Assembly: GCF_964355755.1 (NCBI RefSeq)
Contig: NC_092677.1
Coordinates: forward strand, 5,416,101-5,480,100
DNA length: 64,000 nucleotides
Direction: 5' to 3'
Source of the DNA: Antedon mediterranea
Taxonomy: Eukaryota; Animalia; Echinodermata
Of this stretch, positions 1 through 44,720 are shown in pieces. A program made the translations under genes and the position numbers. The stretch's first letter is position 1. Each line of letters begins with the position of its first letter. The notes beneath the pieces are model-generated. The model did no database searches. It saw only the letters and a list, made by a program, of their open reading frames with translations, and was not told the origin of the DNA.

Positions 1-23
1 CATTATATTCTTTTAATGTTTAG

Positions 24-365
24 ATTTTCAAGCTAATTTGGTGACAGGATTTAACCAGATATCCAAAGAGGGTGATGCTGAAGTGGTGATAACTTGTGAT
101 TATTCACAATTTACTTCTACTGAACCAGATGGCATAAAATGGGATGAGCTAGATGAAGATGGAGTAAATATTAACCCAGGAATTGTGAATGACAAAAACA
201 AAGAAAGTGGACGTTTCAGTTTACACACTGATTCTGCTCATTTTAAAGCTAGCCTGGTGATCTCGCAACCTTTGAGAAATGATTCTCAGCGACGATTTCG
301 ATGTCAGATAACAACAAAAAGTGGCAATATTCAACATTCAAATCCTTCAATTCTAACTGTGTATT
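24..365 (+). CDS. Gene A exon: N-terminal V-type Ig domain
   Basis: tag|AT...T|gtgagt, phase 1-1. VITCDY...IKWDE...GRF...ASLVI...DSQRRFRC...LTVY. Clear paralog of 39027-39356. Confidence 0.9.
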
Positions 366-3300: not shown

Positions 3301-6300
3301 AATATTAGACATCTAATACAAATTTATTATAAAAAACATTCCTAATACTGTACAAGAGCAATTAGAGAGTTGTAACCTCCACCTAGAGTAAAAAGAAACT
3401 GTGGTTTAAATGTGGTAAAGATCCGTCTTGTAGTTTTGCCTATGTAAAATAATAAATGTCATCCAAAATTGAGATCTTGGTCTGGATTGCCTCCAAAATT
3501 TAATGGAGTCATCCATGACCAATATCTATCTGTGGTTTAAATTTGGTCTTTTATTTACACACACACAGATATTGAAAATATAACCGCCTAGTAGGCGAAG
3601 GTAATAATAATGTTTTCCTGTTGATAATTAGACTTGGATCCACTTCTTGATGCCTCAGCAAGCACTGTCAACGAAGGTCAATCAGTGACCTTTACCTGTA
3701 GTATACCTGGTTATCCTATTCCTTACATTACTTGGTATAAAGATGGACAGACAGTCAACACCGACAACCCTTCTAGATATGAGTTTGTAAATAACAGTAC
3801 AGAGTCAATTCTTAAGATTAAATCAGCTACTGAAGAAGATGGTGGGAGATATACATGTAAAGCAGAAAGTGATCAGTTTAAAGGAAAGGATGCTAAAACA
3901 AGTGAAGGAAAACAGTTGACTGTAATTGAATATGGTATATGTATTATTATTATTGTTTTAAAAAATAATATAAAATTACACATTGTCATACAATGTCAGC
4001 ATCATTCATGATGGATATCTTCCTTGGTATATAAAATCCGATAACCAAATGTTTGAAAATAATAGGATCAGATTTATTTCTTCTGTGTGTGAATCTCTTA
4101 TTAAAACCAAAAACACTTTTTTTCTAAAATGTTTATAACTTTGCTCAACTTACGTCGTGAGGTGTTTTCCCGAATGATCGCACCATTAAAATGGGTATCA
4201 TCAACTACTGTAGCATTCATTTTCCCAACAATCATCCATTTGTAGCAGGCCTACAGTACCACATAGCTTTTTAATTGCATTTTACCATTTACTTTTAATT
4301 TGATTATTTATACATCTTCTATAAAATCTTTTTATTTAACCTCACCCTGACTTTACTTTCTTTTTTTAAGAATGTTAATTAACAGCAAACCACAGTAATT
4401 CTATTAATCCTAATTGGTCAGATAAGATGGGCCCAGCCTAATATTACTATTCACTGACCATAACAAACATTCCTTTCTCAACTAGCATCTTAGCATCTTT
4501 ATCAAATATCGTATATTGTATAATATTATCTATTTATAGAGAATCCTCACTGATTCGCTTGGAATAAATTACATATCTTACTTTATACATTTAGTTTATT
4601 TTACCATTGCGCTAACAATCATATACTAAAGTGGTGACCCTCAACTTTCTTTTACTGAACTTAACTTATTTATTAACTTAATTCATAGAAGTACTGATGA
4701 AGAAGTCAATCTGTGGCGACCATAGAATGGACCGGAGACCTGACTTTCTTCGACTTTTAAATAATAGAAAGTTTTGAATAGTTTGTTAGGATTTTATGTA
4801 AGATTGATAATTTCAAAACTAATAGACATTTTTCAATGAAAATGAAAGTTTACTTCATATCAAAAGTACAGTGATAATACTATACTACTTTCAATTTTTA
4901 ATTAGTTTGAGGAAATGACTTTAATTGAGGTTTATACCTCTTAAAAATAAATTTGTTTCTGCCAACTTACAAATTTAAAACAGCTGCGGATTGATGGCAG
5001 ATAAACACCAAATAAACTAGATGCATGATAGATTTTCTGGTTGTATAATATGCTATTTAATCAAACCTTTTGAAATAATAAAAAAAGAGTAAACACCATA
5101 ATTAACCAAGGTGTAATCAATTGCATGTCCCTATTATTTCAATCAACATTCATTTCTCAATTGAGAACATTTTGAAAAGAAATATTTCTGGCACATTGCT
5201 TTTGAAAAAAAAAAAACAATTCATACACAGGCATATAAGCGTATCTTTATAGAGATAGATTAATTTACTTGACATTAGCTTAACTTATTTTTTTTTTAGA
5301 TATTGCTGTTACTTTTACATCTGACGGTAGTTTAGCAACATGTACATCAGAGGGTTATCTCAAGCTATCATCAGTATTGATATTACAAGATGGAGAAGTG
5401 GTTAAGAAAGGAGAAAATGCAGCTACTATAGAAATAGATGATGAGATATGTCAATCAAATCTTACATGTTACGCAGAGAATGGACATCTTAATAAAACAA
5501 CAACACTAGAGAACTGTAATGCTGGTAAATATACTAAATTTATTATTGGTATTCGCTCAACCAAATGGGTTCTTCTTTCAGTGGGATTCATGGTGTCAAG
5601 TATAGTTTACTCAACATTTGTGTTTACACAATATCTCGAAACGAGAGTAATAGCATTGTTACAACCATTCTCATTTCGAGCTCATGTCTCATGGACGTCG
5701 CTTTCGATGCCCAGCATGTAGAACAAACCGGAAAAGAAATTCATTTTTGCCAGTGGCCATCCAACTCTTAAATTCTTTAACTTTGACTCTTGTTATATTG
5801 TACTGTGTATTGTGTATTGTGATATTTTTGTATATTTTGTAAGATCATTTTAATCCAGACCTTTTTATTTGAATTGCCCCGTGTGGGATGATTAACGAAT
5901 TTTGAATTGAAATTCACTAATATCATCATTTTAAATGATATATGCTTCTACAGGTTATTTCAATGAAAAGTGATTCATTAAACCTTGATGGAGGTTTTAA
6001 ATTGTTTTTTAATCATAAATGTATTTCCATAGAAATGGTGTTACTGTATATCATAGGCCTATATATAATTTATAGGTCTATGGTAATATCAATTCTGATA
6101 ATATATTTTTTATTGATAATTAATAGAAACAAGTACAGTTACACAAGAAGATTCAGGATCACTGTTCATCATCCTGATTGTTGTTGTGATTTTTGTTTGT
6201 CTGTTCATATGGTTACTGATTCTTGTTTGTAAGTAAAATGTACCCCTGAATTATTACTTTCTTAAGGTCACTTCTGATTGTATTGTAAATATTATTCACA

Positions 6301-9300
6301 AATTCCCTAATACTATATTTTAATGGATTATTATTATTATTACTATTAATGTTTTATAAATATTATTATACTATTGATAATAATAATAATGGTTCTCATT
6401 AAAAGTGACAAGTTTACAATAAAATAAACAGAAAAATAGATGAAAAAGTAAAACTGAAAGTATTAACATATTTAATACCAGGGAAAGTGAAATTTCAATT
6501 TAATTTCACTCCTCCCTTTTGGTTTCTATTCATTTTATATCTGCTGTAGTTTTTTAGATTAATAAAGAGAATTACATATAGACATGATTAAATAATGTAT
6601 TTATAAGATCTAGTTCACTTCTTTTTCATATGTAAAATCTCAAATATATAAATCAGCTGCATAGGCAGGACATCAATATCAAATAAGTTAAAACTGCCTC
6701 AATATATGTTTATTTGTACGACATTTTTCGGGCATAGCCCATCATCAGGTGAAGAGAATTGTAACAAGGGATGACATATATAAGTCACAAAATTACATAA
6801 TAAAACAAATCAGCCAATCAAAGATGTTAACCGTAAACAAAAGGCATAGTTATAAAGGCACGCCTCCAAAAGCTTTGGGGTATAAACCATGAAGTTTGGC
6901 AGTCAGCAAGCATAAAGTGTATATACGTAAAAAATGGAACGCCGTGGTTACCTACTGTATGTGTGGCTAGTATAGTGTATCATCATCATAGTAGAGGATA
7001 TGTTGATAATAATATAGTACACTATGTGTACTGTAGTGTACATTATAGCAACCTATTTTTTTTTCTAGGCCACATACCCACCCAACTGTATCAATACCTA
7101 TTTATATTTATATATTTAATTTCCTCAACAAATTGATGTAAATAAATATTGAGCTATAATAAGCATTACATTTTGCGCTTTTTCCGGGCTTAAACCCTAG
7201 ATGTATGTTCGCATTGAACTAAATAATGAAATTGGCAACAAAATGTTATATCGTCCTTCAATTAGTCACATGTTTATTGGAGGGAAAAAGTATGATCGTT
7301 TTGCTCATTGGTAGCATGCCACATTTGAGAGTGTCTTTTCCTGCAAATTAGAGGTGCCATTTATCATGAATTTTATGTGCGAGAGTACCATTTCCGGCCA
7401 TCTGGTGCGTCATTTAACAAAGTTTGCTTCGCCACATGTCCTGTCGACGGCCCGGGAAAAGCACCTTTTTCCACAAACACTGAATTGCGCGAAGCGCTCT
7501 GTTGTGACGCTACTCAAAAAAGGCCTATGTGGAAAATGTCACCATTTATTAGGCTAGTACCTCAATTTTCATATTTAAAATATCAATTTTTAATACATTT
7601 ATAATAACATGAGAGTGCCATTTCCGACCATCTAGAGGTGTTATATTTTAAAATTGTCTCAACTCACCCCCAATCATGGTGGGTCTAAGTTGGTGTGGAC
7701 TCTCTACAGTTGCCCTTTCACAAAATCATAGATCTGCCCATGGTTTAATAGACCATTTAAAAATGTCCTACAAACATATCACCCAACCTGCCAATATAAA
7801 GCATATTACATTTAGTACTCAAAATACAATAGACTAGATTTCTAGTGGTACAAGTACAGTAATATGATCTGTGATAACATAATTACCAGAAGGTCCTACT
7901 ATTTTGTTTGAAACGTAATTACATCTATTTCTATTACATTTGAATGTTCCTGTTGATTCATTAGTTTTGTTTTGTAATTTAGATTTAACTAAAGTGTCTT
8001 TAATGCTTTGATCACGTCTGTAAATCATATGTGGTTCTTAAAAAAAATATCCTTTGTAGCGGATTTATCTTCAGTCAAAATCGAAAAGTTATTGCGGACA
8101 ATGTTAATAACCTTCTTATTCATAGGATGATACGTGAGGACTAGAGGTATGCGGTCACAATGTGTCCTGCGTTTACTGGCAAACTTTTCTTTGAGAGTTC
8201 ACGGTAATGTCAAATGGATATTCGTGTGCTTAAAAAAAATCGATCATCTCAGATGCTTTTACGTTAAAGTCATCATCACTACATAAACGTCGAAGTCTAA
8301 CAAGTTGCGAATACGGTATAGCATTCTTACAAGCTGGAGGATGCGAAGAGTTGTAATTTAGATAAGTGTGCGCGTCAGTCTTTGTAGTGAACGGATGTAG
8401 AAAGACCAGGTTTATCAATAGATAAACTAATATCAAGGAAAGACACACACTTGTCAGAAATTTTATTGCAGTATGAAAATTATTCACGAAGTTAATGAAA
8501 TCATTAAGTTCATTTAAAGTTCCCGACATAACATCAACACAATCATCAATATACCGTTTAAATAAATCTGGTTTATTTCCCTTAAAATCTCGTAACACAT
8601 TCTGTTAAAAATAACCCATAAAGAGGCAAGCAAAATTAGGTCCCATTTTTGTACCCATGCTTTATCTCAGAAACTTGCCGAAAAAAGTTTCCATTGAAGT
8701 TGAAGGCTGTAGTATTAAGTACAAGTTCAGCAAGACGTAGTATTGTCGATGCGGGATATTAATTGAAGTACTGTATATAGTTCAATAAAATGTCTCATTG
8801 CGTTAAGTCCATCTTGAATAGGAATTGATGTGTATAAGGTCGTAACATCCATGTGAATTTATAATCCTTAAACAAAATTTACAGCTTCTTTTGATGTAAG
8901 TTGGCAGATTTTGTACAATTGGTTTCAAGATTCCATCCAAGAACTCGCTAATAACAACTGTAGGCGCGTTACAAGCGGATACAATAGGTCTACCAGGACT
9001 GTTAGTCTTGTGTATTTTAGGTAACATGTAAAAGTTAGGACAAGTGGCATCAGAATTACTCATACTATTTACAGTATTCTTAACAATAACAATGTCTGAA
9101 TCAGTAGGGTCGGCATCAAGGGGCTGATATACGTCAAGATTAGAAAGTTGTCTTTCTCCCTCTGTAATATATAGGTCCCTTCTCCAAACTACAGTAGCAC
9201 CACCTTTATCTGCTCATTTAATAACGTACTCATGATTACATTTAAGAGTTTTTCATACACATTTTCCGTTCTAAGACATGGATAAAGGGCAATTAAAAGG

Positions 9301-12300
9301 GCACTAGTATCGGACTTGTGGTTTAGGAGGAGATAGAGGAAAACATTTTGGCTTGTGCTATTATAATACAGATATACAAATAATTTATAATTTATTTAAT
9401 ATCATTCCTTTAATGAGTTATTTAATATCATTTACAATTTTTATTTCAGATTTTATGTATTACAAGAATATTGAGTGGAGCAATACAGATATTGATACAG
9501 TAACAGTTGAAGGTGGTGAACCAGTTGTGATGAGTTTTAAATACCGTCCAAGTATTGCAAGGATCAAGACAGTTGAAATAAAGAAAGAAGACAAGGTGAT
9601 TGGTTCAAATCAACAGCAATTCAGTAGTTGGAAAAAAGTCTGTCAGTTTGTCTGTTATTGCTGTGCTTACTTTTGTGGATTTTTTTGTATTGAATACTGT
9701 AACAAATCATGTAGGTTGTATTGGTTTTTGTTATTAAATATTTTAAAATTTATTTTGTAAATCTAATAGTTATTATGTGAGTTTTTGCTTCATGTTAATT
9801 TAGTATATAATGATAATATTAAATAATGGTAATATTGCTAAAAGTACAGTGAGCAAGTAACAGACATAAACCCCAACAGAATCACTGCTCTTACTCCATC
9901 ATTAATACCATTAAAATATACAAGATAATTAGTCAATATTTTTATTTCAATTTCATAGTTGCACCCCGCAATGCAAATGACCGCAGGTGAGTTTAGTTAC
10001 ATTGTATTTTGATTTATATGGAAATTTCAGTTTTAATGAATAATGAAACCTTTATTGAAAATCATAATATATTTATTTGGGATTGAAATTATGGAATTAG
10101 TTTTATTAGTTTAAAATGGTATATTATACAAATAATGAATGGCTATGAGTGAAATTATTTTTTACATTTCATGAATATGAAGAGGCAGCGCTTCAATTAT
10201 AGATGCGGAGTAGAATAATTATAGACTGTGCACACTACAGGTTGATCGAACGTGGTCAGTTAACAACAGCCTAGCATGCTCGTCACTCACTTGTGTAACA
10301 AAAATTAACATGCAGAACAAAATTGCAGACTTACTCGATTTACATAACAATAATATATATACTGTATATATTTATCTTGAATACAAAAGTATACAGTAAT
10401 ATTAAAGAGGGGGAAAATAAATAATTTCAGGTCAACAAATCATTATTGTGTTAACCCTACAGCGTTGGAAGTGGGGAAGAGTATAGTGCAGAGGTCCCTG
10501 TTCTTGTAGTTTAATATTATTATCTTGTATTGTGTTAACCCTACAGCAGTGGAAGTGGGGAAGAGTGTCAGATGATGGTGAATAAAAGTACTAAACAACA
10601 AGCAGCAGTCTCTGAATCAAAACAGGTTGGTTTAATAAAACTTATCAACTAATTTCAATTAAAATCCTGTTTTTCTTGAATTAAAAGTAAAACAATAAAT
10701 TTTGAGTTGACAAAGATAAAGAAAAAAAGCGACCTGTTTTACATAAACAAATTTCAATTATATATTTTTATTCACAACTTATTTAAACTTATGTTAAGTA
10801 ATTTATTTCCAATGTTTAGTTAAAGATTTATGTTTGCTTGCCATATCTTGGGCACAAAAGGATAACAATTGGTTTTCAACTTAGTTGGTTAAACAAGAAA
10901 TGAATGAATAAAATAAAAATCAGTAGGTCTGTTGGTATATCTGATAAAAAGTTAAAAAAATCAGAAACAACAACTTCTTATTGACGATGTTGTGCACACG
11001 CACAAAAACAGATTAAAGCAAGTATTTTAGTATTTGAAGTCCTCATTTCCATTGGTCTTATTTATATGTTGTTTGTTTAGAGTCGCTATCCAATCGAGTT
11101 TGAACAATACCGTGAAAGCCCCAGTGGTCTAACGGTTAGGACATCTGCATATCAAGTAGGCGGTCCGAGTTCGAGTCTCGGTTGGGGCGACTTTTTCTCA
11201 TTCTCACAGATTTCCTCATCTTTATCGTTTCAAATTAATTAATTAAATTTCAGTATATTACCGGGCGGTTTAGAATTAATGTTCTATGCCTGATTTGTTT
11301 ATATATATATATATATATATTTGTCTATTATTACCACCAAATGTCTGTTCTTGAATTGATTCAGTTGTATTTATACTATTTGTATGTTTGTATTAACTAC
11401 AAATAAATAGAGTTGTAAAAGTATATTTGTTTATTTATTCACAGAGAAGTCCTGATGGTGATGATGAAGATAGTAATCTTTTAGCAGAACGTCAAGGAAC
11501 ATCTGGTGTTAATGTGAAGGTAAACTTTGTTATTATTTTCTAGTATACTTATAAAGCTTCTGGTAGAAGAAATATTCTCTCTTTAATACTATTTATACAT
11601 TTCCAAAAATGAGTTAAAAAAAAAGAGAAAAGAAGTGTACATTAAATTATCATTATTAATTATTTTGCCATATAGTTCTATATATTCTAATAGATTTTAT
11701 TTGTTTATTTTTATTAATTGAACACATAGGATTGTTTTGTTAAAGCATTTTGTGGCTATTCGACTATATTTGCCCTTATGTTTTTTATGTATTATGTTAT
11801 TTTTTGTTTAATATAGCAAATGACTCAAGCAGGTAATGGTTAAATGTGTTTTTATATACAACAAAGCTTATATTGTATACATTGCTTACTCCTTCTGTAC
11901 TCGCATGGACTTTTTCAATCTCATCAATTTGACAAATGTCACTAGGTTTTTCTTTTCTTCTTTCTCTGATTGTTGGCTGGGTTGAGTTCTATCTCATAAA
12001 CGTTTTGAGGTTTAGAGTCTTTACTAACGGTAATTGACTAGCTCTCTGGCATTTCATTGTCTGGCATTGTAATTTTCACATGCTTACTTATTTTTCTGTC
12101 TTTGTAAAATTGAAAAAAAAACACCATTAATAGCTGATAGTTACCTGAATTTGGTCAACTTCTACTACAATATGTTATTTAATGCAAAATTAGTTTGTTT
12201 CTGTAGATAGTTGCATTTATACTGTATCATTAACTTATACTTCAAAGCAGTGATTTGTAATAGCCAGGCTGGATGGCAATCTATAGTGTTATCCATGGAG

Positions 12301-15300
12301 AATTGATTCTCCATGGAGAGGGAACCAACAAGATGGCGGCTGCAATCGACCAATCAGATATGCCCTACGCAGTACGCACTACTACGCCTGTGTTGAGCCT
12401 ATCTGTGTGAGAACGATATGCAACGCAGCACGTTAAGCGTATAAACGCAAACGCATTCTATATGATCCTCGTATACAAAAAATGCTAGATTACCAAGAAA
12501 TTATTAATTCTCATTATTGCGATTAACAATAATTATATTTAATTTTATAAAAACTTCACGGTGCTTTTGCAAGAATATGTGTTGTAATTTATGTGGTCAT
12601 AATGTATTATATTAGATTATTATTTTTTATATTAAATAATGTTTTTGAACACATTTACGGCTGCCATCTTGTTGGTTCCCCTCCTGTTGGAATCACTTTT
12701 TAGTCTGGAGTACGCCCTCTAGTGTTCTATTACATCTCTCTGACTTCAAGTCATTGTTTAAAGGTGTCAATAGTTACTATACATTTCATTTATATTATTA
12801 TATTTTAACACACTAAATGTATTAGCCATACCACTGATTCCATCACAAACACTTGTACCTCCTTCTGCAATTAAAATATTTCCTTTGATAATGTAAAGTA
12901 ATATTGTGTACCTACCAGCTTTGTGAAGAGTGGAGAGCTTTATTACTTATTCTTGAGTGAATGTTATTCTAGTCTGTGATTTTTTGTCATCACTTTTTTT
13001 AACCACTGTTACCATACTTTGTATGGTATCAGAAAATGTTACTGTGTAAATGTGCATAATGAAAGATCATGGAATTTGACTATATTTAATGTTTTAAACA
13101 TAAATTAAATAAATCCGTTCCCTGACTATAATATTTATTTATTTATAGATTTCAAAGGCCATACACAAATAAGTAATAAATATCATATTTTTGTTATAAT
13201 ATAAAATTATTATTACCAACCATTATTACATAAACTGATTTTATATTGATGTTAACTTATGCCAGTAGTATAGATAGATTTATGTGAAAATCCAGGGACA
13301 ATCACATAAGCCCAATTCCAGATGTGGTGTACTAGAAAATTTATCTAATACTATCTCACATTAGATACCAAATTTATTCGAATAAATGTCCATCCACCCA
13401 TCCCACTTTCAATATTAATCTTACTCGGAATTAAGGAGCATAAAAGGCACTTTCTGTGGAAACATAATAAAGTGAGTATAAACACTGGTTGTAAGGCATA
13501 TTTTAATGTCAACATTGTCAAAATGAAGGTTAACAGTAAGTATAATTTCAATTCACGGAACAAAAATGAAAAACTTAAAAAACTGTTAATACTGAAACAT
13601 TATGTCTACTTCGATCAAATCAATTGAAAAAATTAGTTGCCTATTTAAACTTCATATTCATAAAAATCAGACACATAGGACCTTTTAAATTACCAAAATA
13701 CAGTTAAATAGCAATAAAAACAATTCAATGTATGGTGTACAGTAGCCTAGAATTCTATGACGTCGTATGAGTTCGTCAAAGCCTAACCGCAGATCTAACA
13801 AAGTCTGTTACGATAGCCTATCTTGGCAAGTTGAGCTCAGCGATTTTACTTTCGAATTGATTATGTTAGGAAATTAAATTTACATGTCTGGATTCAAATT
13901 ACATTTCCTTAGCAAATGGTAGAATCAGCCTAACAATTTCAAATCCTGTGAGAGCTGATTCTGGCGAGTACAACTGCAGTATAGAGGGCAGTAGACAGCA
14001 GCGTCCAGGTGTCAACAATTTGACTGTTTATTGTAAGTTTTATTTCTGAAAATGAACTTGTATAATTCTATATAAATACAGAAAAGAATCATAAAGATAA
14101 TCTAAAAAATCTATACAGCAAAAATGAAAAAAAAGTTATTTTTTATCCTGTTTTATAAACAACATTTAATATACTTAGATCAATTATACAGTAAATCATG
14201 CTTTTAACAACAATTTTCATATTCTTACTTAGTTTTCTGTCTTTGTAAAATTGAAAAAAACACCATTGACTCAGCAGAACAAGGTATACGGGAGACACTT
14301 TTATGTATGCCAAATGGTCGATTTAGACCTCTAATAATTTTCTTTTTAGATCACAAAAACAAAATAAACATTTTTTTATGGATCTTCATAATAGTTATGA
14401 TACTTTCTTTGGCTTTGTACAATGCATGACAGATTTTATTTTAGATAAGCCAACTTGAATTTGTTCTATAAATATCATTGAATCCATTGTTTGTGTAATA
14501 TTTTAAAACTATATATATATATATATTTATAAGTATTGTACAATCCAATTACTGTGGTATATGACTGTCCGGGAAACAGTGACGGATCCAGGTTATTAAA
14601 TATAGATAGGGCATCATAAAAATTATAATTTGTAAACATTTAAAATACTGAAAGATACTACACAGCTGTAATTTTTATATTTCATTTATAATTTTAAAAT
14701 TGTGTACTTCAAAATATGCAAATTTATATGTTTGAAGGGATTGAGATGGAAAATCCAGAGTACTCAATCAAAGAAGGTATCAGTAATTTTGAAATGAAGT
14801 GCAGATATAGACCATCAGATATGCCATTAACAGGTTACAAGTGGAAGAAGATTAAGGAAGATGGCACAACAGACATTGAGGATTGTTCTGAAGATGGCAG
14901 ATTTGAAGTAACAAAACAAAATAGCATTCTGTCTTTGAAGATAAAAAATGTTATACTTGGTGATTCTGGCAAATATCAATGTGAAGTGAAGCCAGTTGAT
15001 GGAGAAAAGAAGCTGGAAGATACTACACAGCTAACAGTTAAGAAACGTAATATTTTTACAGTATTTCATCTACATTTATTTTGAGAATTACTAAACAGTT
15101 CTATGCTAGCTATTAGAAACTAAACTAAACTAAACTACAATAAAAATCCAGTTATAACAAAATAACTTATAAATCCTGTAACCTACAGAGAAACAAATCA
15201 AATTAGAGCATGGTTCAGAATTTTTGAGCATTTTAAAATTGTTGTTTGCTGCTCACATTTGGTATGCCTAGAATAAAAATGTAGCATAAAGTTAGTAATG

Positions 15301-18300: not shown

Positions 18301-21300
18301 CTTTTATCGATGGTAGTTTTTTAAAAATGCTTTGTTTTTTGGTTATTCGCAATTGTTAGCAACATAATACATGTATATTGTTATTATAAATTGACAATGT
18401 ATCAAATCAAACATAAAATGATTTATTTATCTGCTTATCCGTTTGCAATAAAAATTGATATTTAAATCCCATTTATTAACTATAACTTAAGATTTACAGG
18501 GCCTAGCCATCATGAGGCAGACGATCAGGCACTTGCCTTGTCTTAAATTTCAATTTTCACCACCCACCTCAATTTCCCAGCAGAGATCGTCATATTTTAT
18601 ATTAATACTTAAATTTTAAAGCATCTTTGCCTCGTCTGTTTTTAACCTCTCACTACGGTCTTGTTTGGTTTGACTTTGGCTATCAAACAACAGGACACTG
18701 AGCTTGTCTTTCCAAGATAGGCTATTGTAACAGACTTTGATCTGCGGTTAGGCTTCATCGAATTCATACAAATCCCTCGAATTCTAGGCTGTACACCATA
18801 TACGTCAAATTATTTTTATTGCTATTTAATTGTGTTTTGGTACTTAAGGTCCCATGTGTTTAATTTTTAAAATTTAATTTGATGGAATTATCAGTTTTAT
18901 AAATTGTTCATTGTTCATGCTGTTGATTGAATTTATTGTGTACTGTTAACCTTCATTTTGACAATGTTCATATTAATTCAAGGCAAAATGATGTGTATAC
19001 TCACTAATGGCGTTCACATCGAACTATGGCTAGTTAATTTAACTAGATTATCTGTATGATCTCGCCATAATTTGGATGTGAACGCTCAATTATGTCCGGA
19101 TGATGGTTTTTTTCTGGAAAATTATTGCTGCTTGAAGGATAGCCAGTTATTTTATGACTTAGGGTAATCCAATTAACAACCCAGCAGGTGGCCTTCAGCC
19201 TCATTTGCACCAATGAGATTGAAGAATTTTTGAACCCAATTGACCATTATTATGGTCATTTTAATATTTAACATTTGAATTGCAAAGAATATGCTTATTC
19301 TTCTTCATTGTGTACCCCATAAAATGTCCTAAAAATTAAATGAACTATATCTGACGAGGACAGAGGTCAATAGAAGATAAGAATAGAGTAGAATACAAAA
19401 GACAGAAAGTAAAATGACCAATTGTTTGTAATCAAAAGTTAAAAGTAAACAACATACAGGATAAATAAAAAAAAGAGATGATTTTATACATAAAATAGTA
19501 TTTAAAATCTCCAATACCAGGTTTTTATGAAATTGAATTAACTAGACATAATTGTACCAAAGTACGGGATTTGTCAAGGTTAGTCCAATTAGTAGAAAAT
19601 TGTTAAATCCACTTCTTCTAGACATAGTTCCATGTGAACCCCACTGTAACTGTATTGTTATGTTTTTTTGTAGCTATGACACTGGATGATTGTATTGTGA
19701 AACTAGGAGATAAAGCTGTTTTAACTTGTAAGTATGGACCTGAGACGCTGGGGAAAGTCCCTGTTAATTGGTATAAGAAGACTGTTGATGGAAACAAGAT
19801 GATATTTACTTCTGATGAATCACAACAGAAGAAGACAAAAAAAGTGTCTGAAAGATACAAAGCAACTTATAATGATAATGAAACAAGTTTGGAGTTTGAG
19901 AAAGTGTCAATGATTGATGCTGGAGAGTACAGATGTGAATTTAAGGCCACAAAAGGAATCATTGGCAAATCAGCACAATTGTGTGTATACTGTAAGTACA
20001 TTTTAAAATATCTATTTTTCCATGAAACTAAAGTTGAGTGTATTTAAATAATTAGTATGAACTAAAGCATGTGATCTAAATGCTCATTTTACCCTAAAGC
20101 ACCGGAAGTCATTTTAAAGTAATTTAATTTTGATTACTTATGGTGTGAAACATTTAGTAATATTTAATGTTTTTTTTTTTTTTTTCAATAGTTGACGTGT
20201 TTACTGCTGAACCAGGTAACACATATAGGTAATGTAAATGTTTTATTTGGATCTCATAATCTGAAACATAAATTGTGAAACAAGCAGCATCAAATCATCA
20301 CAATTTTTGTTCTTTTGTTTTGCCATTTATACATATTTGTATGTTCTTGAATATCAGTTATTTTGTAAATTCATCTCATTTTTAATTAAGTTTTTGTGTA
20401 TATTTTTTTCTCTTATTTCACAGACGTCCTACTGTAGTCTTTACAAAGACTCATATTCTTGTATTTTGTGTGCAAAACAACTCAAATGTAACAATGAAGA
20501 AAAGAGAATTGAATGTAAAGAGTGAGACTGAATGGGAAAAACCAATACAGATTTTACATGAAAAGAATACAAGGTATTGGTATAATATTCCCTGAGAAGA
20601 TATGACAATAAATAATTCAAATTAAAAATTAAATTGAATATATTCCATTGCCCAGTCAATTGTGTGTATAGTACAATATCAAAATTTAAATATTTTTTAA
20701 AAGAGAGAAAACAATTACAGATATTATCTAAACTTGGTAAAACTGATCTTTAGATTGCTTGATCAATTTATTTTTTAAAATAAATTTTGTTTACAATAAC
20801 CGTTGAATTTGTTCTGTTTATTATCTATTTACTCTACAGCTTACATAATCCAGTACCAATTGTGACAAAAACAGGAGGACAGGTGATTCTAATATGCCTT
20901 GCACAAGATAATAACACACAAAAGAGAAGGATAATGAAGATGGATAGTAAGGATAATGGAAAGACTTGGATAAAATCACCATTTAACAGATATTCTGGGG
21001 ATGAAATAGACATTCTAAGTAATTATAAATTAGATTTGTATTATGTTGTTTAAAGTTGTATATAGTCATGCGTCATGACGTGCATATATTCTTTTTGATG
21101 TACAGTATGCCATCCTATGACCTGATGCATATATGCTTATACAGTAGTAATGAACTTGTAGAGAATATACACAGTATACACTATATCAATATAGTGTAGT
21201 ATACTGTAGGTGAATTTACAGGACCCAAATATGTTCTTTTTTCTTTTTTTGGTATGATGACCTTATACCTAGTTTATTGCCTAGTGTGTAAACATTATTG

Positions 21301-24300
21301 ACATAATTTCATTAAACATCGACACAGTACAACTCTTCTTAACAACATTTTTTCAATCTTCTATCAACTAAAAGTCGTAGTTAGTCACGCCTCGGGTCAC
21401 ATTCTATGGTCACCGTACAGATAGGCTACTACATCAGTACTTCTATGAATGGATGGCTAGTTGGTGACAAGAACGCTAGTTGGTCATACCCAGTACCGTT
21501 TTGATTTTACGATCATTCGGGAAACCACCTCACGATATTATAAAAATTAACAAGAAGATGACCATTTTAAATTTGTATAACTTTGACAGAAGAGATGAAA
21601 AAACTGCCTTTTAAATTCAACTGGCCATTTTATAACGTCACAACATCTGATAGGCACAATTTTTATATGAATTCATCAAGGTCACCTTTAATTCTGAAGA
21701 GCTATATGTTAAAATATACAGTGTAGGTGATATTACACGATCCAAGTTATTTAGATTGTTAGGTGTGATAAATTCATCAAAATGAAAATAGTGGTGAACT
21801 GAAGTTTTCATGTAATTGGTAAACAAAATCTCTAGGTAGTGATCATTTTATTTATTCTAAATGTTCACCTAACAAGTAATTACATTGTGTTTTTCAGGCC
21901 TGGGTGGTGGTGTGTGCTTAGATTCAGGAAAAATGGTTGTTGCAGGAGTTTGCAAGATAGACAATGAGAGTAAGAATATTATTAAGAGATACTTTCACTA
22001 CTAACTTTGACAGTTGTCATTTTATTTCCCTATTGTTTTTAACATTTGCGCTTTTTTGTCATGACTGAACATATTCTCACATATTCAAATATAAATTATT
22101 TTCCAATCTTTTTTAAATGCATTTGCTTGACTCATCCTCTTGCCCAACTGTAATAAACTAGAAATAAGTAGGTCCCATTATTGATGATTGCTATTAAAAA
22201 TAGTTATTGTTTAATTTAGTCCTCATATACATTTTCTTGTATACACTTTAAAGCCTCATTCCCTAGGTTTTTTAGAACTAATTTAAGGTCACAAACTACA
22301 GTACATTGAATGTAAAAATAAATACTATATGGTCCTATTGCGATAACTAATTGTGAAAAATAAGTCTATTCTAATCATTTAAGCGGCTCACTATAAATCC
22401 CAAGATGCATTGCATGCGGATTGATATTTTCATTTTTCTTCTGTGGTTCACCCACTCGATCGGACGTTAAGGCCAAAACAAAGTAAAGAATCGTAACTTT
22501 TCAGCGAAAATACCGTATTTTCCCCAATTTGTATCACCGAATTTTGGCAAAAACATAAAATAACATCAGACTAGGCCTATAGCTGGCTTACGATGTTCGT
22601 AAAGTTACTGCTGTTTACCAGCTAGTCAGACAAAACTAGGCCTATCTAGGCTAGGCCTAAAGATTGTCCAGGGGAGGATGAAGGCCTCAGCATGCAGTCT
22701 CCAATGCCATCTGTCTTTCGTCTTGCTGTACCAATTGGTACTGCTCCAATATTGTTGGAGTTGTCTCTCCAACGCTTTCTTTGTCTCTGCTTCGCTTTGC
22801 TTTCCCGTCATTGGTGTCCACATTGTTAAGGCTTCACTCCAGCTGTTATCCTCTCTTCTAGACACATGACTTGCCCATGTCCACTTTTTTCTTTTCACAG
22901 TTTCAAGTTTGTCTTGAGTATCAGTTTTCTCTCCTTCTCCATTTATTGGTGTTCCTATCTTTGTAGGTGATGTTCAGCATACTCCTTTCCATATTGTGTT
23001 GTGCTGCTGCTAGTTTTTTTTTTTTCTCCCCTTTTTTGCTCATTGTCCAGGTTTCTGCTACATATGTCATTGTGGGGAGAATGCATTGGTCAAATATCTT
23101 CTTTTTTAAACATATTGGAAGATTCCCTTTCATTATTTCGCTATGTCAAAACAAATGTATCAAAACAAGATCCTTTGCTAAGGTGTTTGAGTCTTTTATT
23201 GCCAAATGGATTATCGAGGGCATTAGTGAAAAACTGGATGCTAAGTAGTATGATAATACTAAAGGTTCATTACTGTACATTACATCATAGATATGTTAAA
23301 TTTCTTGAAGCCTTGAAGCCAAAACAATCTGTTACTAAGGCTTTCGACAGAGTTAATCATACAATTATCATAAACAAATTAATTAAACTTGGCGTCAGGT
23401 TTTCCATCGTTCCCCTCATCTGCAGTTTATGTGGAAGAACCCACAATACTAAACTTGAAAAACATCTCTCACCAAATCAATATGTTAAGTACCGTAGGGA
23501 ACCAAATTGGGACCCATCTTATTCTTAGTTTTAGTTAATGATGCGGCCACTGAAAGTCACAGGGGCCAAATTTTTGGATGACCTGACGCTAGGGGAAGTA
23601 CCAAATGTGGGGCTCCCTCTGATTTCCAGAGTAATATCAATAGTGTCAGTGAGTACATCAAATGATGTTGTACCAAAACCAGCCAAATGCCAAATTATTG
23701 AATTCAATTTTTCAAAGCAACGGCAGATTAATTTAGCCTATAATATCAATAATTTTGACCTTCCAATAGTTAAGGAGTTAAAGATACTTGGTGTAAAAAT
23801 TGGGGTTCCAATGTTAATGATATAGCATCAAGAGCCTCGCGCACCAATCGGTGATCTGATTATGGGTTTTATATCATACCTGTATCAGACCTGTTCTGGA
23901 ATATGCCCAGGTTTGGCATTCATATTTAAGTGTACAACAATCCAATAAAATAGAAAGAATTCAGAAGCGAACTTTAAGAATAATTCTAGGCCCGGGTTAT
24001 GTTAACCTTAGAATTTGCCTTAGAATATGTGGTTTGCCTCCGTATCCGTAGAGAACATCTTTTTCTTAAGTTTGGCAAGAGCCTTTTAAAGTCCATAATA
24101 TTTAGGGATATGTTACCTCAATATACCCAGCTAACAATTTTACGTTGAAAAAACATTATAAAAACATATCCATTTGGTTTTGAAAACGTTTAAACCATAT
24201 GTTTTAAAAACGTGAATTTGTGAAGTTTTGCGAGCATTAAAATAACATATTTTAGAATATTGTAACAAAAATACAAGGTTTCAAAAACGTATTTGTTTGA

Positions 24301-27300
24301 TTTTGAAAAAGTTGTAATTATACGTTTTAATAACATGAAGTTTTGCGAACGTTAAGAAAACGTTTTATTGAAACGATTTAAAAACGATTTTTAAACGTAT
24401 AAATAATGCAATATTTTTCCAATAAAATGTTAAAAAATATGTTTGTGAAGTTTTGAAAACGTTTAAAAAAAATATAAAAACGTCTTTGTGTTAAATAATC
24501 TTTAATTTTATTTTTTTTAAACGTCATAAACAGGTTTCCTTTATCTTGTCGCTGTACATGACTTCAAACGCATAAGTGTTTTTAATCACCAATTTAATGA
24601 ATACATCGATAATCAAAATATTATAATTCTGCACAATCTGTAGACGTTCTTTGCCTCTTTTATATGTTATGTTGTTAATGTTTCACATCAATATTTTGTC
24701 TAAAACAAAGCTTAACAAATCGGCTAAGGAATAATTGACAATTAAGTCATTGTTTTAACTTAACTTAACCATTGTCGGTTCCCTTTATGTTTTAGAAGAC
24801 TAGACGTACAGTGTAATGTTGTCACCTACAGTACATCTCCTACATGAAAGAAAATTTTAACAAATATGAATGAGTAATAATCAAAGTAATGGGAAAGTTA
24901 AGTCATCCACATCATGTTCGGAACAAATGTAATCGCGACATTTAATGAATAATAATAATAACAATGCAGATTTCTAGAGCGCGTACATCATTGTCTCAAG
25001 GGTCTATTCTATTGATTTGTGGCTCTGGTCATGATTTTGTTCCACTGTAGATTGGAATAAACAATAATATTATTCAACTCTTATTATGAAGCTATAATAA
25101 GTGTAACCAATAACTGGTTTAATTTGAACTATCCAGACATTTTCAGAATAGCGTGATAATGATGTAGTCTAAACTTACTTTTTATACTATACGATATGAG
25201 GAAAGTTTATTGCAATTTCAAAATACATTAAAATTGAAGTTTAACAAAAATAAATATGCAAAAATATATAAATCGTAGGCATACAAATATAAGTAATTTT
25301 TAGAAAAATACATGTACATTTAAGCAAAATACTATATAGGCCTACAAGACTGGACATTATAATTAGAAAAGGACAAAATTAAAAACGACAAAATACAAAA
25401 TAAAAACTCTTAATAAAAACTCTTGTCAGAAAGGACACCCTTCTAAATAGAAGAGGTTTTTTCCTCGCCTCAACTAAACAAAACTCAAAAAAGAAAATAA
25501 TCATCTATAAATAACAAAAATTATAATTTTAAATACACATATTATCTTTAATAGAAATAAAATGTAGAGCCTACCAAACCATGTGCCTTGTCAGATGTAG
25601 TGAAATACAATATACTTAACTTAGGTAGGCCAGTAATAGCCACTACACCATTGTTTGTATTCCACACTCATGAGGTCATTTAGTTTCAGTTTAGGCCTGC
25701 ATGCACATTATAACGTTTAAAAATCGTTTTTTATACTTTTTAAATTAAATAGAATTACAATGAGAATTGTTGCAAATATAGTTACAATAATTATGTAACC
25801 GTTTTTTCCTTACAATGAAATAGTACATTTCAAAATGTTACAATTAATCTGCATTGAAAATGCAATTTAAACCATCGTTAATAAACCGTTAAAATTTTTT
25901 TGCGAGTTGCATATTTTACAGTATTAGAACATTGGCTTATTATCAATATTTTAGCATTGGCCTGTAGCGTTTTTGTTATTTTTTTGTAGTTTTATTGTCT
26001 TTATTATGTAAAATGAATTTCAATTTTAAGTGGACGAATAAAATTTCTTGAATCTTAAATCTTGAAATTATACAAAGATAATTGTTGGTGATGTTGCTTT
26101 GTAGAAAGACTATTTGTAATGACAAAAACTGATGATAGTGATTTCTGGGATACAATTACTATTCCTATACCAGCAGCTGCTACCTTAGGAGAACATACAA
26201 AAGTAAGACTTTTTTTTACTAAATTTTACTTAAAGACTAAAAGAAGTCTATCATATTGGATTGTTATTGATAAAACTTTTTTGACATTTTCTATTTAGTT
26301 TTATTTGCTTCCATTTGTAAGCTGAGTGAATATACAATGAAAGTATAAAATAACTCTACTGTAAAGGGTCTTTCACACCTGTTTCGGCACGGTTCCGGTC
26401 CGGCGCCGGAAAATCCAATCGAACTTCAATGTTGCATTTTCACGCGGCTATGCGCCACTCGATATATATATGGAGCGTCGTGAAAACGAAAAATTGATGT
26501 TCGATTCGCCAGACCGGAACCGTGCCGGAATAGGTGTGAAGGGTCTTTCAGGCAAGTAAAACATCAATATTACAAATTTAAAAACTCTTCGTGCACACAC
26601 TTCCCAAAAACGATTTTTTTATATGTTTGTGTATGCCTCCATGAACTGTAACTCTCATTGGATACCTCTCAGTAGACTTGTAGAAACGAGGTTGAACTGT
26701 TTACATGATTTAGTTCTCATGTTCTAAATGCACCTTTGTCATACAATGTGATTTTGTTTATTAGGTTGTTGAATATTCTAAGGACAAAGTTTACATCAGC
26801 TGTTCATTGGAGGATGGTAGTAAGCGGTTACATGCATACAGCAATGATGGATGTAAAACATTTGGAAATATTGAGAATGCAAATCCAAAATGCGAGGTAT
26901 CCACAATATGTCAGTTTGTATCAGCTGGAAGCTAAATTAAATGTTGTATAATACATACATAATTATTTATTAATACCAATCATTCAAATACAGTATAACT
27001 ACCGTCCTAGAGTAAATTTAATTAATTAACTCAAATAATAAAATAAACATTTTATTTAATGAAAGTAATTACATTGATGAAGTAGAAATACTGACATATT
27101 TGTATACATACAGTATATACAGAACACAACCCCAGGTATACATCAGATATATCATATTTTAATCCAAATTGTGTTAAGGGTACCCTAAATTAAGAAAAAA
27201 ACATGTGTACAGTTTGTTTAGTCTCAAATCAATCTTTTGAAAGTGTAAAATATTATTTAAAAAAAATCAAGAACTAACCTACTTCAATCAAATTTTGTCA

Positions 27301-28225
27301 TTGACTATTCTGCTTTTCCTTTGAATTTGAACTTTTTTTTACACCTAAACATTTATTGTTTTGGATTTTGTGTTGATGAAAATAAATGAATGAATGAATG
27401 CGCTGCTTTCACAGCATTTATTATCAAATATAAAATATTTAAAATATGTTGTTTTGTACACAGAGAAAGCTCTTAAAATTAAATGTAAAAAACATCAAAA
27501 ACACGATAATGAAAAAACACATCAAAGATACAAAAAGGATACAGCCAAGAGAGAAAATTCCAATAACAACAAATTGTCATGATGCTTACAATGAGACACA
27601 GTTTATAGTTATACTAATCTTATCTAGATGTTTTGCTGTTATATAGAGTTATAAATTGTAAAAACCAAAAACTACAGTATTAATATTAAATAATAAGACT
27701 ATAAGAGTATGGTGTATTATTATACAAAAAATATTTCAGAAGTTGAAAGATCGACTGTCATAACTCTTCTTTCAAATGAAATAATTCTCTCTATTCAACA
27801 AATTATTTGTTTTATAACACACCTACTGTTCTAAAATATTTTTTTATTTAATTAATCCATTTTAAATAATTGTACAAGGCTAGTCCAATTTCATATAACT
27901 TCTTGTTTTAAATTGTATCATTATCTAGGGTGGTATTGTACGTTTACCAACCAAGAAACATGGACTCTACCAAATAGCAATGGCAAGTCACGGAAATGAA
28001 ACAAATAAGGATCTTACACTTTACTTAAGTGAAGATGGTTGTAAAACCTGGTGTCAGTTTAACACACTAGGTGCAGTGAATGCAGAAGAATCTGACCTAG
28101 CTTATAACAGTGTTAGAACAGGGAAAGAAGAAGCGATGGAAATAGTGTGTGTTTACAGTTATGGATCAGAAACAGATGGTTATAGCATTAGAATGCTTAG
28201 TATAACCAAGGCAATCAGACACTAA
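24..28225 (+). CDS. Gene A (5'-partial): multi-exon IgSF membrane protein, Ig x6 - TM - half-Ig/Cys-rich - linker - Ig x4 - sialidase-like beta-propeller
   Basis: Exon model: 24-365, 630-938, 1866-2084, 2318-2542, 3632-3934, 5300-5524, 6127-6228, 9450-9710, 9959-9986, 10547-10625, 11445-11519, 11817-11832, 14738-15046, 16278-16586, 17747-18061, 19674-19991, 20192-20228, 20424-20573, 20840-21018, 21898-21969, 26105-26202, 26765-26896, 27929-28225. All have AG/GT boundaries and matching phases, with no internal stop (4400 nt). Linkage across 6.2-14.7 kb is inferred, so this could be two genes. Confidence 0.6.
630..938 (+). CDS. Gene A exon: I-set Ig domain
   Basis: Phase 1-1. EGQSVTFTC...PIPHIAWYKDG...LKIKSATEEDGGRYTC. 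Confidence 0.92.
1866..2084 (+). CDS. Gene A exon: short 4-Cys Ig-like domain (copy 1)
   Basis: Phase 1-1. ATCTAEGYPKP...ICQSTFTCHAENG...NC. Confidence 0.88.
2318..2542 (+). CDS. Gene A exon: short 4-Cys Ig-like domain (copy 2; ORF track shows a different frame)
   Basis: tttttag|AT ATC ACT...ACA G|gtaata. DITVTFTSEDGIATCTAEGHPKPSFVLILQDGEVVKKGENTATIELSIKMCQSHLTCFAENGKLNETTTLENCNT. Confidence 0.85.
3632..3934 (+). CDS. Gene A exon: I-set Ig domain (duplicate of 630-938)
   Basis: Phase 1-1. Nucleotide sequence is highly similar to 630-938, including the acceptor gataat(c/t)ag|acttgga. Confidence 0.88.
5300..5524 (+). CDS. Gene A exon: short 4-Cys Ig-like domain (copy 3)
   Basis: Phase 1-1. 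ATCTSEGYLKL...ICQSNLTCYAENG...NC. Confidence 0.82.
6127..6228 (+). CDS. Gene A exon: transmembrane segment
   Basis: atag|AA ACA...GTT T|gtaagt. ETSTVTQEDSGSLFIILIVVVIFVCLFIWLLILV. Confidence 0.85.
6712..6755 (-). ncRNA. Degenerate minimal hammerhead-ribozyme motif, probably from the Penelope-like element terminus
   Basis: Minus strand reads CTGATGA-T-GGGC-TAT-GCCC-GAAA-AATGTC: core boxes with a perfect stem II. It lies downstream of, and on the same strand as, the Penelope-like ORF. Confidence 0.55.
7757..9240 (-). mobile_element. Penelope-like retroelement remnant (RT + degenerate GIY-YIG region), frameshifted
   Basis: DKGGATVVWRRD, FYMLPKIHKTNSPGRPIVS, GTKMGPNFACLFMG, KRYIDD, YLNYNSSHP..CKNAIPYSQLVRLRRLCS, GTFKCNRNRC, spread over several frames. 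Confidence 0.9.
9450..9710 (+). CDS. Gene A exon: N-terminal half of an Ig-like domain fused to a Cys-rich hydrophobic segment
   Basis: tttcag|AT...TCA T|gtaggt, phase 1-1. TVEGGEPVVMSFKYRPS (cf. SVEGGEAMIRF and CRYRPS in later exons), then WKKVCQFVCYCCAYFCGFFCIEYC. Confidence 0.65.
9959..11832 (+). CDS. Gene A: four small hydrophilic linker/tail exons (9959-9986, 10547-10625, 11445-11519, 11817-11832)
   Basis: Phases chain 1-2, 2-0, 0-0, 0-1 with good splice sites. FAPRNANDRSSGSGEECQMMVNKSTKQQAAVSESKQRSPDGDDEDSNLLAERQGTSGVNVKQMTQA. Confidence 0.6.
11118..11189 (+). tRNA. tRNA-like sequence with anticodon ATC (Asp); probably a tRNA-derived repeat or pseudogene
   Basis: Cloverleaf: acceptor GCCCCAG/TTGGGGC, D arm GTCT/GGAC, anticodon arm TCTGC-ATATCAA-GTAGG, T arm CCGAG-TTCGAGT-CTCGG, followed by T5. 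Confidence 0.6.
12300..12720. mobile_element. MITE-like element with inverted repeats
   Basis: gggaaccaacaagatggcggc (~12320) versus gctgccatcttgttggttccc (~12660). Confidence 0.55.
13490..13850. repeat. Dispersed repeat family
   Basis: gatagcctatcttggcaag(t/c)tgagctcag and its flanks recur inverted at ~18695-18975 and partially at ~28240-28290. Confidence 0.65.
13870..14032 (+). CDS. C-terminal half Ig exon (alternative exon or relic)
   Basis: ttag|GAA...TAT T|gtaagt, phase 0-1. ...GRISLTISNPVRADSGEYNCSIEGSRQQRPGVNNLTVY. Confidence 0.55.
14738..15046 (+). CDS. Gene A exon: V/I-type Ig domain
   Basis: FEMKCRY...YKWKK...GRF...LSLKIKNVILGDSGKYQC...LTV. Phase 1-1. Confidence 0.88.
15544..15706. 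mobile_element. Short MITE
   Basis: TIRs cagggccgtatgcagg / cctgcgtacggccttg, with an internal poly-G run. Confidence 0.6.
16278..16586 (+). CDS. Gene A exon: Ig domain lacking the B-strand Cys
   Basis: VRLPFSF...TLYKK...SRYQC...AYLEIRNVVPGDAGEYIC. Phase 1-1. Confidence 0.88.
17747..18061 (+). CDS. Gene A exon: Ig domain lacking the B-strand Cys
   Basis: EGGEAMIRFN...GRY...LEISNVQPSDAGEYRCCV. Phase 1-1. Confidence 0.88.
19674..19991 (+). CDS. Gene A exon: V-type Ig domain
   Basis: GDKAVLTCKY...VNWYK...ERY...SLEFEKVSMIDAGEYRC. Phase 1-1. Confidence 0.9.
20192..28225 (+). CDS. Sialidase/neuraminidase-like (GH33, BNR/Asp-box) domain of about 320 aa in 7 exons, catalytically degenerate
   Basis: Spliced motifs occur in NEU order: TYRRP (F/YRIP), HNPVPIV, SKDNGKTW, LGGGVCLDSGKMVV, TDDSDFW, SNDGCKTF, PKCEGGIV, LTLYLSEDGCKTW, EESDL, VCVYSYG. 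Stop TAA at 28223-28225. Confidence 0.85.
22660..23135 (-). mobile_element. RTE-clade-like LINE 3' fragment
   Basis: LKKKIFDQCILPTMTYVAETWT...AQHNMERSMLNIT...KKWTWASHVSRRED. Confidence 0.85.
23160..24120 (+). mobile_element. Degenerate non-LTR reverse transcriptase (CR1/L2-like)
   Basis: AKVFESFI, KAFDRVNHTIIINKL, GTKLGPILFLVLVND, KFLDDLT, RPVLEYA, ERIQKR, with frameshifts. Confidence 0.85.
26363..26548. mobile_element. Palindromic MITE (Harbinger-like end sequence)
   Basis: ttcacacctgtttcggcacggttccggtccggcg versus cgccagaccggaaccgtgccggaataggtgtgaa. Confidence 0.7.
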
Positions 28226-44517: not shown

Positions 44518-44720
44518 ATGCCGTATTGTGCAGCATTTAATTGTACCAATACAACAAGTGGAGGATAAAATCGCGACCGGAATATAGGATTTTTTTCCTT
44601 CCCAAAGTCTTCGGGTCTGAGAAAGGCATGGATCCACGCCGTCAGACGAAAACATTTCCAGCCTAGCAAATTCGCAACGATATGTTCGGAGCACTTCTTG
44701 GAAGAAGACTTTGCGAAATA
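44518..44720 (+). pseudogene. THAP domain (Kolobok transposase N-terminus) with in-frame stop
   Basis: MPYCAAFNC...*...FFSFPKSSGLRKAWIHAVRR...TICSEHFLEEDF. Stop at 44566; truncated by foreign sequence at 44721. Confidence 0.85.

Follow-up and report, generated by a model that had tools for sequence, protein, structure and literature searches.

Does a protein domain that keeps the whole fold of a sialidase without its catalytic residues still work as an enzyme, or has it been turned to another use? The question is raised by a 64,000-nucleotide stretch of the genome of the crinoid Antedon mediterranea (contig NC_092677.1, positions 5,416,101 to 5,480,100 of the forward strand), AT-rich with ~31% G+C, which is called here the window. 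On its + strand, between window positions 20192 and 28225, seven exons encode a domain related to human NEU2 and to the other sialidases of the NEU (GH33) type. The answer that we consider probable is that this domain is an intact NEU-type propeller, predicted to be hydrolytically dead, and that its likely role is that of a binding or scaffold module without enzymatic activity, at the C-terminus of a membrane protein with multiple immunoglobulin (Ig) domains.

Seven exons encode an open propeller frame

When joined, the seven exons give a frame of 321 codons free of stops. GT..AG borders were found for 6 of 6 introns, an AG also precedes the first exon, and the exon phases are compatible with each other as well as with the upstream Ig exon, whose end reads ...TAC T followed at the splice point by GTAAGT. 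Given the base composition of the window, ~7% of random codons are stops, so that a frame of 321 codons would stay open by chance with a probability of roughly 1e-11. The propeller exons, compared where indicated to the A. mediterranea paralogs described below, are as follows.

20192..20228, + strand: propeller exon 1, a micro-exon encoding (F)DVFTAEPGNTY(R), the N-terminal closing strand and the start of YRRP; it has an AG acceptor and a GT donor, fits in phase on both sides, and aligns with FDVFT..YR of the paralogs.
20424..20573, + strand: propeller exon 2, blade 1; Arg1 is retained (RRP), the EGR motif is changed to QNN and the acid/base loop is shortened, with no Asp at the catalytic position; 37-47% identity to the paralogs by tblastn.
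20840..21018, + strand: propeller exon 3, blade 2, with the canonical Asp box SKDNGKTW and an NNT sequon; Pfam BNR_2 is found at E 3.4e-5 on its open reading frame (ORF) alone.
21898..21969, + strand: propeller exon 4, start of blade 3, with LGGGVCLDSGKMVVAGV.
26105..26202, + strand: propeller exon 5, with the degenerate Asp box KTDDSDFW, and GEH, in which His occupies the NEU2 E218 site.
26765..26896, + strand: propeller exon 6, blade 4, with ISCSLE, in which Ser occupies the Arg2 (NEU2 R237) site, and the Asp box SNDGCKTF.
27929..28225, + strand, stop at 28223-28225: propeller exon 7, blades 5-6, with TNKDL, EESDL and VYSYG, the Asp box SEDGCKTW and a NET sequon.

An earlier examination of the letters of this DNA (hereafter the original prediction) had described a frame open across seven exons in which three Asp boxes were kept. 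Both points hold, start coordinate included: SKDNGKTW is canonical, and SNDGCKTF and SEDGCKTW are near-canonical, with the Gly one place early. The fourth box, KTDDSDFW, is degenerate in the window and canonical (STDDGDTW) in the paralogs. Exon 7 is the best-conserved exon of the family of Antedon-type proteins to which the domain belongs.

Relationship with sialidases was assessed with profiles and with a structural model. Against a local hidden Markov model (HMM) of 34 canonical sialidases, the spliced window product scored 138 bits (E 1.7e-44, for one sequence), and the best of 200 shuffles of this product reached 3.7 bits on the same HMM. Pfam BNR_2 was above its cut-off (31.4) in 5 of 5 paralogs, with 46.8-71.6 bits. 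When the family profile was run against the PDB, all of the 39 matches obtained at E<=10 were sialidases or GH33 BNR proteins, the best one being NanI (1.2e-6). A profile is needed for this comparison, as a single-sequence phmmer search of the PDB with the whole of paralog P0006 gave 145 matches (E<=1), the best 60 of which were all Ig proteins, without a single sialidase.

The AlphaFold2 model of P0006, computed from a 55-row alignment, had a predicted local distance difference test score (pLDDT) of 86.7 and a predicted template modelling score of 0.77, with propeller blocks mostly between 85 and 97; an earlier job of this type, with a 15-row alignment, had given a pLDDT of 61.9, with blades 5-6 under 35, and was discarded. 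Human NEU2 occupied ranks 1-3 in Foldseek (E 4e-16 to 7e-15), and VIA-align superposed the model on human NEU2 with a Z of 36.7 and a root mean square deviation of 2.5 Å over 325 residues, spanning NEU2 4-377. A search among ESM Atlas model structures gave template modelling scores of 0.82-0.86 to exo-alpha-sialidase clusters. Superposition on NEU2 had been proposed as a check of the original prediction, and a best match to an unrelated propeller family had been named as the result that would speak against it. Run on the paralog, the superposition made NEU2 the best solved match, and no unrelated propeller came first. The modelled fold is that of a full NEU-type six-bladed propeller, and the window domain joins the GH33/NEU group by its profile match, by the superposable propeller of its paralog, and by its YRRP and Asp boxes.

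Alignment of the catalytic positions

According to PMC3431349, six residues, R21, D46, E218, R237, R304 and Y334 in NEU2 numbering, are fully conserved across metazoan NEU1-5. The NEU2 sites were placed via a HMMER alignment of NEU2 with P0030, a canonical A. mediterranea sialidase that matches it at 2.7e-30; R21, R237, R304 and Y334 correspond directly, while the D46 loop and the E218 stretch are offset by gaps. Three alignments were then compared: a MAFFT alignment whose 45 rows include 31 canonical sialidases, and two HMM alignments, one of the family profile with NanI and one of the local 34-sialidase HMM with the window product. They agree on the catalytic positions, which are given below for the canonical rows, for the Antedon-type rows and for two proteins of Anneissia japonica, another crinoid.

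Arg1 (R21): canonical R 31/31; Antedon-type R 7/7 (window YRRP); Anneissia R, R.
Glu (E218): canonical E 31/31; Antedon-type H 8/8 (GEH); Anneissia H, H.
Arg2 (R237): canonical R 31/31; Antedon-type S 7/8 (ISCSLE); Anneissia S, S.
Arg3 (R304): canonical R 31/31; Antedon-type N 5/7 (TNKDL); Anneissia F, F.
Tyr (Y334): canonical Y 31/31; Antedon-type E 8/8 (EESDL); Anneissia C, S.
LYE Glu: canonical E 31/31; Antedon-type S 6/8 (VYSYG); Anneissia E, E.

Canonical invariance (31/31) covers all these sites bar the acid/base Asp. The column of that residue (D46) corresponds to an 8-column gap in the MAFFT alignment, or stands opposite a Thr in the HMM alignment (window NNSNVT); most paralogs retain an Asp in a 3-residue remnant loop (NNSD), whose placement relative to D46 is uncertain. 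The Arg of EGR, present at 0.94 in canonical rows, is replaced by Asn. In the NanI alignment, counting by hand places E539 opposite His and R555 opposite Ser, with residue numbers and a chain-to-protein offset that we take to be those of NanI. VEY was considered as a carrier of the catalytic Glu and rejected, since the column of the catalytic Glu aligns with the His of GEH.

By alignment, the window domain keeps Arg1 alone of the six catalytic residues; the other five are either substituted or missing. All the motifs quoted in the original prediction (TYRRP, VFCVQNNS, ISCSLE, TNKDL, EESDL and VYSYG) are present. Its view that the first Arg is the sole survivor is borne out by the three alignments, with Ser for Arg2 and Asn for Arg3, and so are the loss of the acid/base Asp and the changes of the nucleophile Tyr to Glu and of the LYE Glu to Ser. 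The list of losses, right for four catalytic residues and for the LYE Glu, had however overlooked the replacement of the catalytic Glu (E218) by His. Of the attributes of an active sialidase, the domain has an incomplete Arg triad, has lost the Tyr/Glu nucleophile pair and has no loop-2 Asp. From the roles of R21, D46, E218, R237, R304 and Y334, we strongly infer that hydrolysis is lost. A fold conserved without hydrolysis, as had been proposed, is supported within the bounds of sequence and predicted structure, the model of the paralog having a Z of 36.7 to NEU2.

At the old active centre, the basic Arg clamp has given way to Glu-Glu, His and Asn-Lys. This speaks against the classical binding of sialic acid, and for a different ligand, for a metal, or for a role that is structural only. 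A true sialic-acid-binding lectin, using the old pocket in the style of the inactive trans-sialidases to bind sialoglycans without cleaving them, is unlikely in our view. Two of the three arginines that clamp the carboxylate are gone (Ser and Asn), which makes a classical sialic-acid lectin role doubtful even though Arg1 and the whole propeller are retained, NEU2 is the nearest fold, and a Lys follows the Asn at the Arg3 site (TNKDL). In addition, Asn has taken the place of the EGR Arg, the loop of D46 is shorter, and the pocket has conserved sequons on its flanks. Sialoglycans are abundant in echinoderms according to PMC3431349, but the two new glutamates at the centre bring a change of charge that should disfavour an anionic sugar. 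The inactive trans-sialidase type is defined by an intact Arg triad in which the carboxylate is bound, with the nucleophile as the only loss; the window domain differs, two of three Arg being replaced.

Relatives, phylogeny and retention

The last exon matched 7 proteins with 76-82% identity, all named 'uncharacterized protein [Antedon mediterranea]' and all encoded on one 28.6-Mb contig. With paralog P0001 as query, an exhaustive phmmer search returned 147 matches at E<=0.001 among 1.84 billion representatives, 10 of them at E<=1e-30. The close matches were all from crinoids: P0001-P0010 of A. mediterranea (P0010 being on another contig), and P0011 and P0012 of Anneissia japonica. P0011 (XP_033114277.1), a protein of 369 residues, is named 'sialidase-3-like', and P0012 (LOC117114697) has 487 residues with an Ig domain in front. 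The next matches were ordinary sialidases: P0030 (A. mediterranea, 'sialidase-3-like'), P0013 and P0015 (A. japonica), hemichordate sialidases and many others. Word-seeded family-profile searches, at near (4 proteins) and longer lengths (6 proteins), returned A. mediterranea only and no further species. No protein of the searched collections was identical to the window product, the best tblastn identity being ~84%; the locus would accordingly be a paralog that lacks annotation, or one from a related species. Within the propeller, identity is 56-63% between the window and its A. mediterranea paralogs, and 61-86% among the paralogs (fragment P0007 excluded). These Ig-linked pseudo-sialidases appear to form a small gene family, seen so far in crinoids only.

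A quick maximum-likelihood tree was built, with the Shimodaira-Hasegawa-like approximate likelihood ratio test (SH-aLRT) as the only support and without P0009, whose propeller is truncated. The 8 Antedon-type rows, window included, grouped with an SH-aLRT of 100, and together with the Anneissia pair they formed a 10-row clade, also with an SH-aLRT of 100, whose long stem measures 1.37 changes per site. The sister group of this clade was that of the canonical crinoid sialidases (97; joint node 93), and all 15 deuterostome rows stood on one side of a branch with support 100. The window belongs to the clade by its His at E218, its Ser at R237, the loss of Tyr334 and the V-set Ig exon upstream. 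The pattern is in keeping with a single duplication of an active crinoid sialidase, followed by a phase of rapid change and, later, by retention. The disarmed state is no peculiarity of the window copy: it is conserved family-wide in this crinoid clade, across roughly 10 Antedon paralogs.

Two features, the near-invariance of the substituted residues and the occurrence of the clade in two crinoid families, suggest retention under selection. The His at the E218 site is common to all 10 members of the clade, in both families, and the loop of the former nucleophile, VNAEE, is the most conserved of the top-face loops, with a mean pairwise identity of 0.95. Such conservation exceeds what a merely vacated site would need, and it could be taken as the mark of a neo-enzyme, in which the His at the old Glu site and the Glu-Glu at the old Tyr site (EE in 7 of 8 family rows, RE in the eighth) would build a novel catalytic site or metal centre with a different substrate. 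Of the explanations considered here, this is the one to which we give the least credit: there is no known GH33 member with such a chemistry, no matching motif was recognised, and Anneissia has Cys or Ser at the Tyr site, so that the putative centre is not shared by the whole clade.

We also considered that the window copy might be a silent or decaying pseudogene, open by chance or because it was duplicated recently. Identity between the window and its paralogs is 73% in the last exon and 45-58% in the others; among the paralogs these values are 76% and 35-61%. The gradient from exon to exon being the same as that of the annotated paralogs, the window copy is not visibly decaying, and its terminal branch of 0.41 falls within the family range of 0.05-0.70. 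The 321 codons without stop or frameshift and the consensus at every splice site speak in the same direction. What would suit a pseudogene is that no identical protein exists in the searched collections, that the third Asp box is degenerate and several residues conserved in the family are changed, and that retroelement-like ORFs lie in the large intron. On balance we hold a pseudogene to be very improbable, and return to a retained, non-enzymatic propeller.

The propeller ends a predicted multi-Ig gene

The seven exons do not make up a free-standing gene: the + strand from ~2 to 28225 is collinear by tblastn with the A. mediterranea model P0003 (1435 residues), and a far longer multi-Ig gene, covering window ~1-28225, is predicted to have the propeller as its C-terminal domain. 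That this region yields a single transcript rests on the A. mediterranea gene models. Its other parts are listed here.

19676..19993, + strand: V-set Ig exon directly upstream, with an in-phase splice to the propeller; the last of four Ig exons.
14707-15054, 16310-16555 and 17752-18078, + strand: the other three Ig exons, by tblastn collinearity with P0003, P0005 and P0006.
2..14031, + strand: 5' part of the gene model, with N-terminal Ig exons, from tblastn collinearity with P0003, a hydropathy scan and reading of the DNA.
6127-6228, + strand: transmembrane exon.
~9450-9709, + strand: exon with the first half of an Ig-like domain and a Cys-rich hydrophobic run, CQFVCYCCAYFCGFFCIEYC.
13918-14031, + strand: exon with the second half of the Ig-like domain, ~4 kb downstream of the first half.

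The ORF at 19628-20047, which contains the V-set exon, matches Pfam V-set at E 6e-13. A signal-peptide exon would sit upstream of the window. The run CQFVCYCCAYFCGFFCIEYC does not differ between the window, P0003 and P0005, and P0004 and P0009 carry it almost unchanged; both splicing and topology are puzzling in the region comprising 6127-6228, ~9450-9709 and 13918-14031. Some N-terminal Ig exons of the + strand are duplicated (632-937 and 3652-3933) or triplicated (1847-2086, 2299-2544 and 5302-5526), and match the same residues of P0003 and P0005 with 65-80% identity. They may be extra domains or alternative exons.

Contigs of X5, a candidate RNA run whose kind is guessed, were also compared to the window. 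At a likeness of at least 90%, X5 provided only paralog-like pieces and repeat joints. One contig joins window 14033 to 14776, with 37 other letters between them, and looks like the spliced transcript of a paralog, from exon 13918-14031 to the next Ig exon. At a likeness of at least 97%, this run of guessed kind had no joint at any of the six propeller introns; all it gave were short contigs within the last exon (27975-28085), each differing at 1-2 places.

Topology and a possible use of the former active face

The family has three N-glycosylation sequons, which read NNS, NNT and NET in the window and occur in 7/7, 7/8 and 8/8 of its rows, compared to 0-1 of 33 canonical rows for each and neither of the two Anneissia rows. 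Cysteines at positions 82, 129 and 192 of the window product are present in 8/8 family rows and in both Anneissia rows, whereas 2, 0 and 6 of the 33 canonical rows have them. These lineage-specific sequons and cysteines, together with the disulfide-type V-set Ig domains, suggest a passage through the secretory pathway. Two of the conserved sequons sit on former active-site loops.

The scenario that we favour would begin with the duplication of an active crinoid sialidase, one copy of which would have lost five of the six catalytic residues. The disarmed propeller, whose exons follow V-set Ig exons in phase, would form the end of a multi-Ig membrane protein, and the former active-site face (blades 5, 6 and 1), where a conserved set of Glu-Glu, His and Asn-Lys replaces the basic Arg clamp, would serve a ligand other than classically bound sialic acid. 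A binding, decoy or scaffold role could follow from this arrangement. A bolder version, which we offer tentatively and hold to be less likely than its contrary, is that a NEU3/4-like sialidase became the charge-inverted, glycosylated, non-catalytic receptor head of a tandemly expanding, variable, multi-Ig transmembrane family, used for lineage-specific recognition at the cell surface (immune, self/non-self or gamete), with the dead glycosidase as a conserved module for ligand binding or for a signalling partner.

Several observations weigh against the reading of the propeller as a non-enzymatic binding or scaffold module. The modelled structure is that of a paralog 56% identical to the window domain, and not of the window product. 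In the gene models, one clear transmembrane segment is followed by a weak second hydrophobic run (Kyte-Doolittle 1.75-1.77), so that a cytoplasmic Ig-plus-propeller part is conceivable. If the sequons are used, their glycans might block access to the pocket, a situation more in line with a scaffold role. Top-face loops (0.59) are no more conserved than bottom loops (0.57) or strands (0.63), and the loops of blades 2-4 are variable (0.37-0.48); a conserved pocket is therefore not demonstrated. Gene conversion between tandem copies may account in part for the high identity seen in the last exon. The window copy also departs from residues conserved in the family: Val replaces Glu29, Arg replaces Gly40, and Ser154 and Gly158 of the third Asp box are changed as well. 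To these is added the new chemistry based on Glu and His discussed above, improbable as we judge it.

Other features of the window

A second family member starts on the - strand at 39417-37907, with three Ig exons that have 53-67% identity to P0003 and P0005. Between 28300 and 37900, tblastn (E<=1e-3) found no propeller exons. Pfam searches of 37 surrounding ORFs gave the Ig domains of this minus-strand paralog and one THAP domain, and nothing else. The THAP-domain ORF (44569-44826, + strand, E 5e-11) overlaps an oppositely oriented ORF of 399 residues (44666-45862, - strand) without any Pfam match, and the pair may be a transposon-derived gene. The same ORF translations occur inverted, ~6 kb apart, at 49131-50168 and 54077-56492 (for example 49699-50028, + strand, and 55800-56051, - strand), which points to an inverted duplication or to the ends of a mobile element.

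Long intronic ORFs at 22600-24100 (both strands) and 8233-9213 (- strand) display motifs that by eye resemble those of reverse transcriptases (FDRVNH, YIDD). They gave no Pfam match at E<=0.001, and are probably decayed retroelements.

Comparison with known systems

A literature search returned nothing on a family combining multiple Ig domains with a propeller, and other systems only, most subscription journals being outside its coverage. The public names of these proteins are 'uncharacterized' or 'sialidase-3-like', and the latter would wrongly imply an enzyme. The clade is a descendant of the animal NEU proteins which breaks the six-residue conservation of NEU1-5 reported in PMC3431349, yet is retained in two crinoid families. 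With it, GH33/NEU would be added to those glycosidase folds which have found a non-enzymatic use in animals. It would also provide a compact test case for pseudoenzymes, for which the same genome offers an active sister gene, of relevance to glycobiology, to pseudoenzyme research and to the biology of echinoderm receptors.

The window domain shares with human NEU2, as well as with vertebrate NEU3 and NEU4 and the 'NEU5' group, the six-bladed Asp-box propeller, an Arg1 of the F/YRIP type, NPxP, xCQGx and the positions of the Asp boxes. Compared to NEU2, it is without five of the six catalytic residues and without the LYE Glu, its loop 2 (NEU2 42-49) is shortened, and it has ~320 residues instead of 380; it stands behind Ig domains, and has clade-specific sequons and cysteines. 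The canonical crinoid sialidases P0030 (XP_071940874.1), P0013 and P0015, which carry names of the 'sialidase-3-like' and 'sialidase-4-like' kind, form the sister clade and share DGCxTW and GCxGS with it. P0030 retains all six catalytic residues, and P0013 and P0015, which are N-terminally short, retain those that they cover; the models of these three proteins have no Ig part and lie on other contigs. P0011 and P0012 of Anneissia are in the same clade as the Antedon-type proteins, with His at the Glu site, Ser at Arg2, the Tyr lost and, for P0012, an Ig domain in front. They differ by an identity of 33-48% per exon to the Antedon type, by the lack of the three sequons, and by the retention of GPGHG, NPA, the LYE Glu and a longer loop 2.

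Further away, Vps10/sortilin propellers have ten blades and belong to a different family: the model obtained here is six-bladed, and Pfam Sortilin-Vps10 reached 25.6 bits on P0001 for a cut-off of 33. They are non-enzymatic Asp-box beta-propellers of animal membrane receptors, as described in PMC2716378. The crinoid domain would, by analogy, work most like other pseudoenzymes derived from glycosidases. Chitinase-like lectins are a precedent for animal glycosidase folds reused in a non-enzymatic way. The inactive trans-sialidases of Trypanosoma cruzi are lectin-like pseudoenzymes of GH33, which have lost the nucleophile Tyr, keep the Arg triad and still bind sialic acid. The crinoid domain resembles them by its GH33 propeller and the loss of the Tyr, but its triad is broken, and organism, architecture and origin differ.

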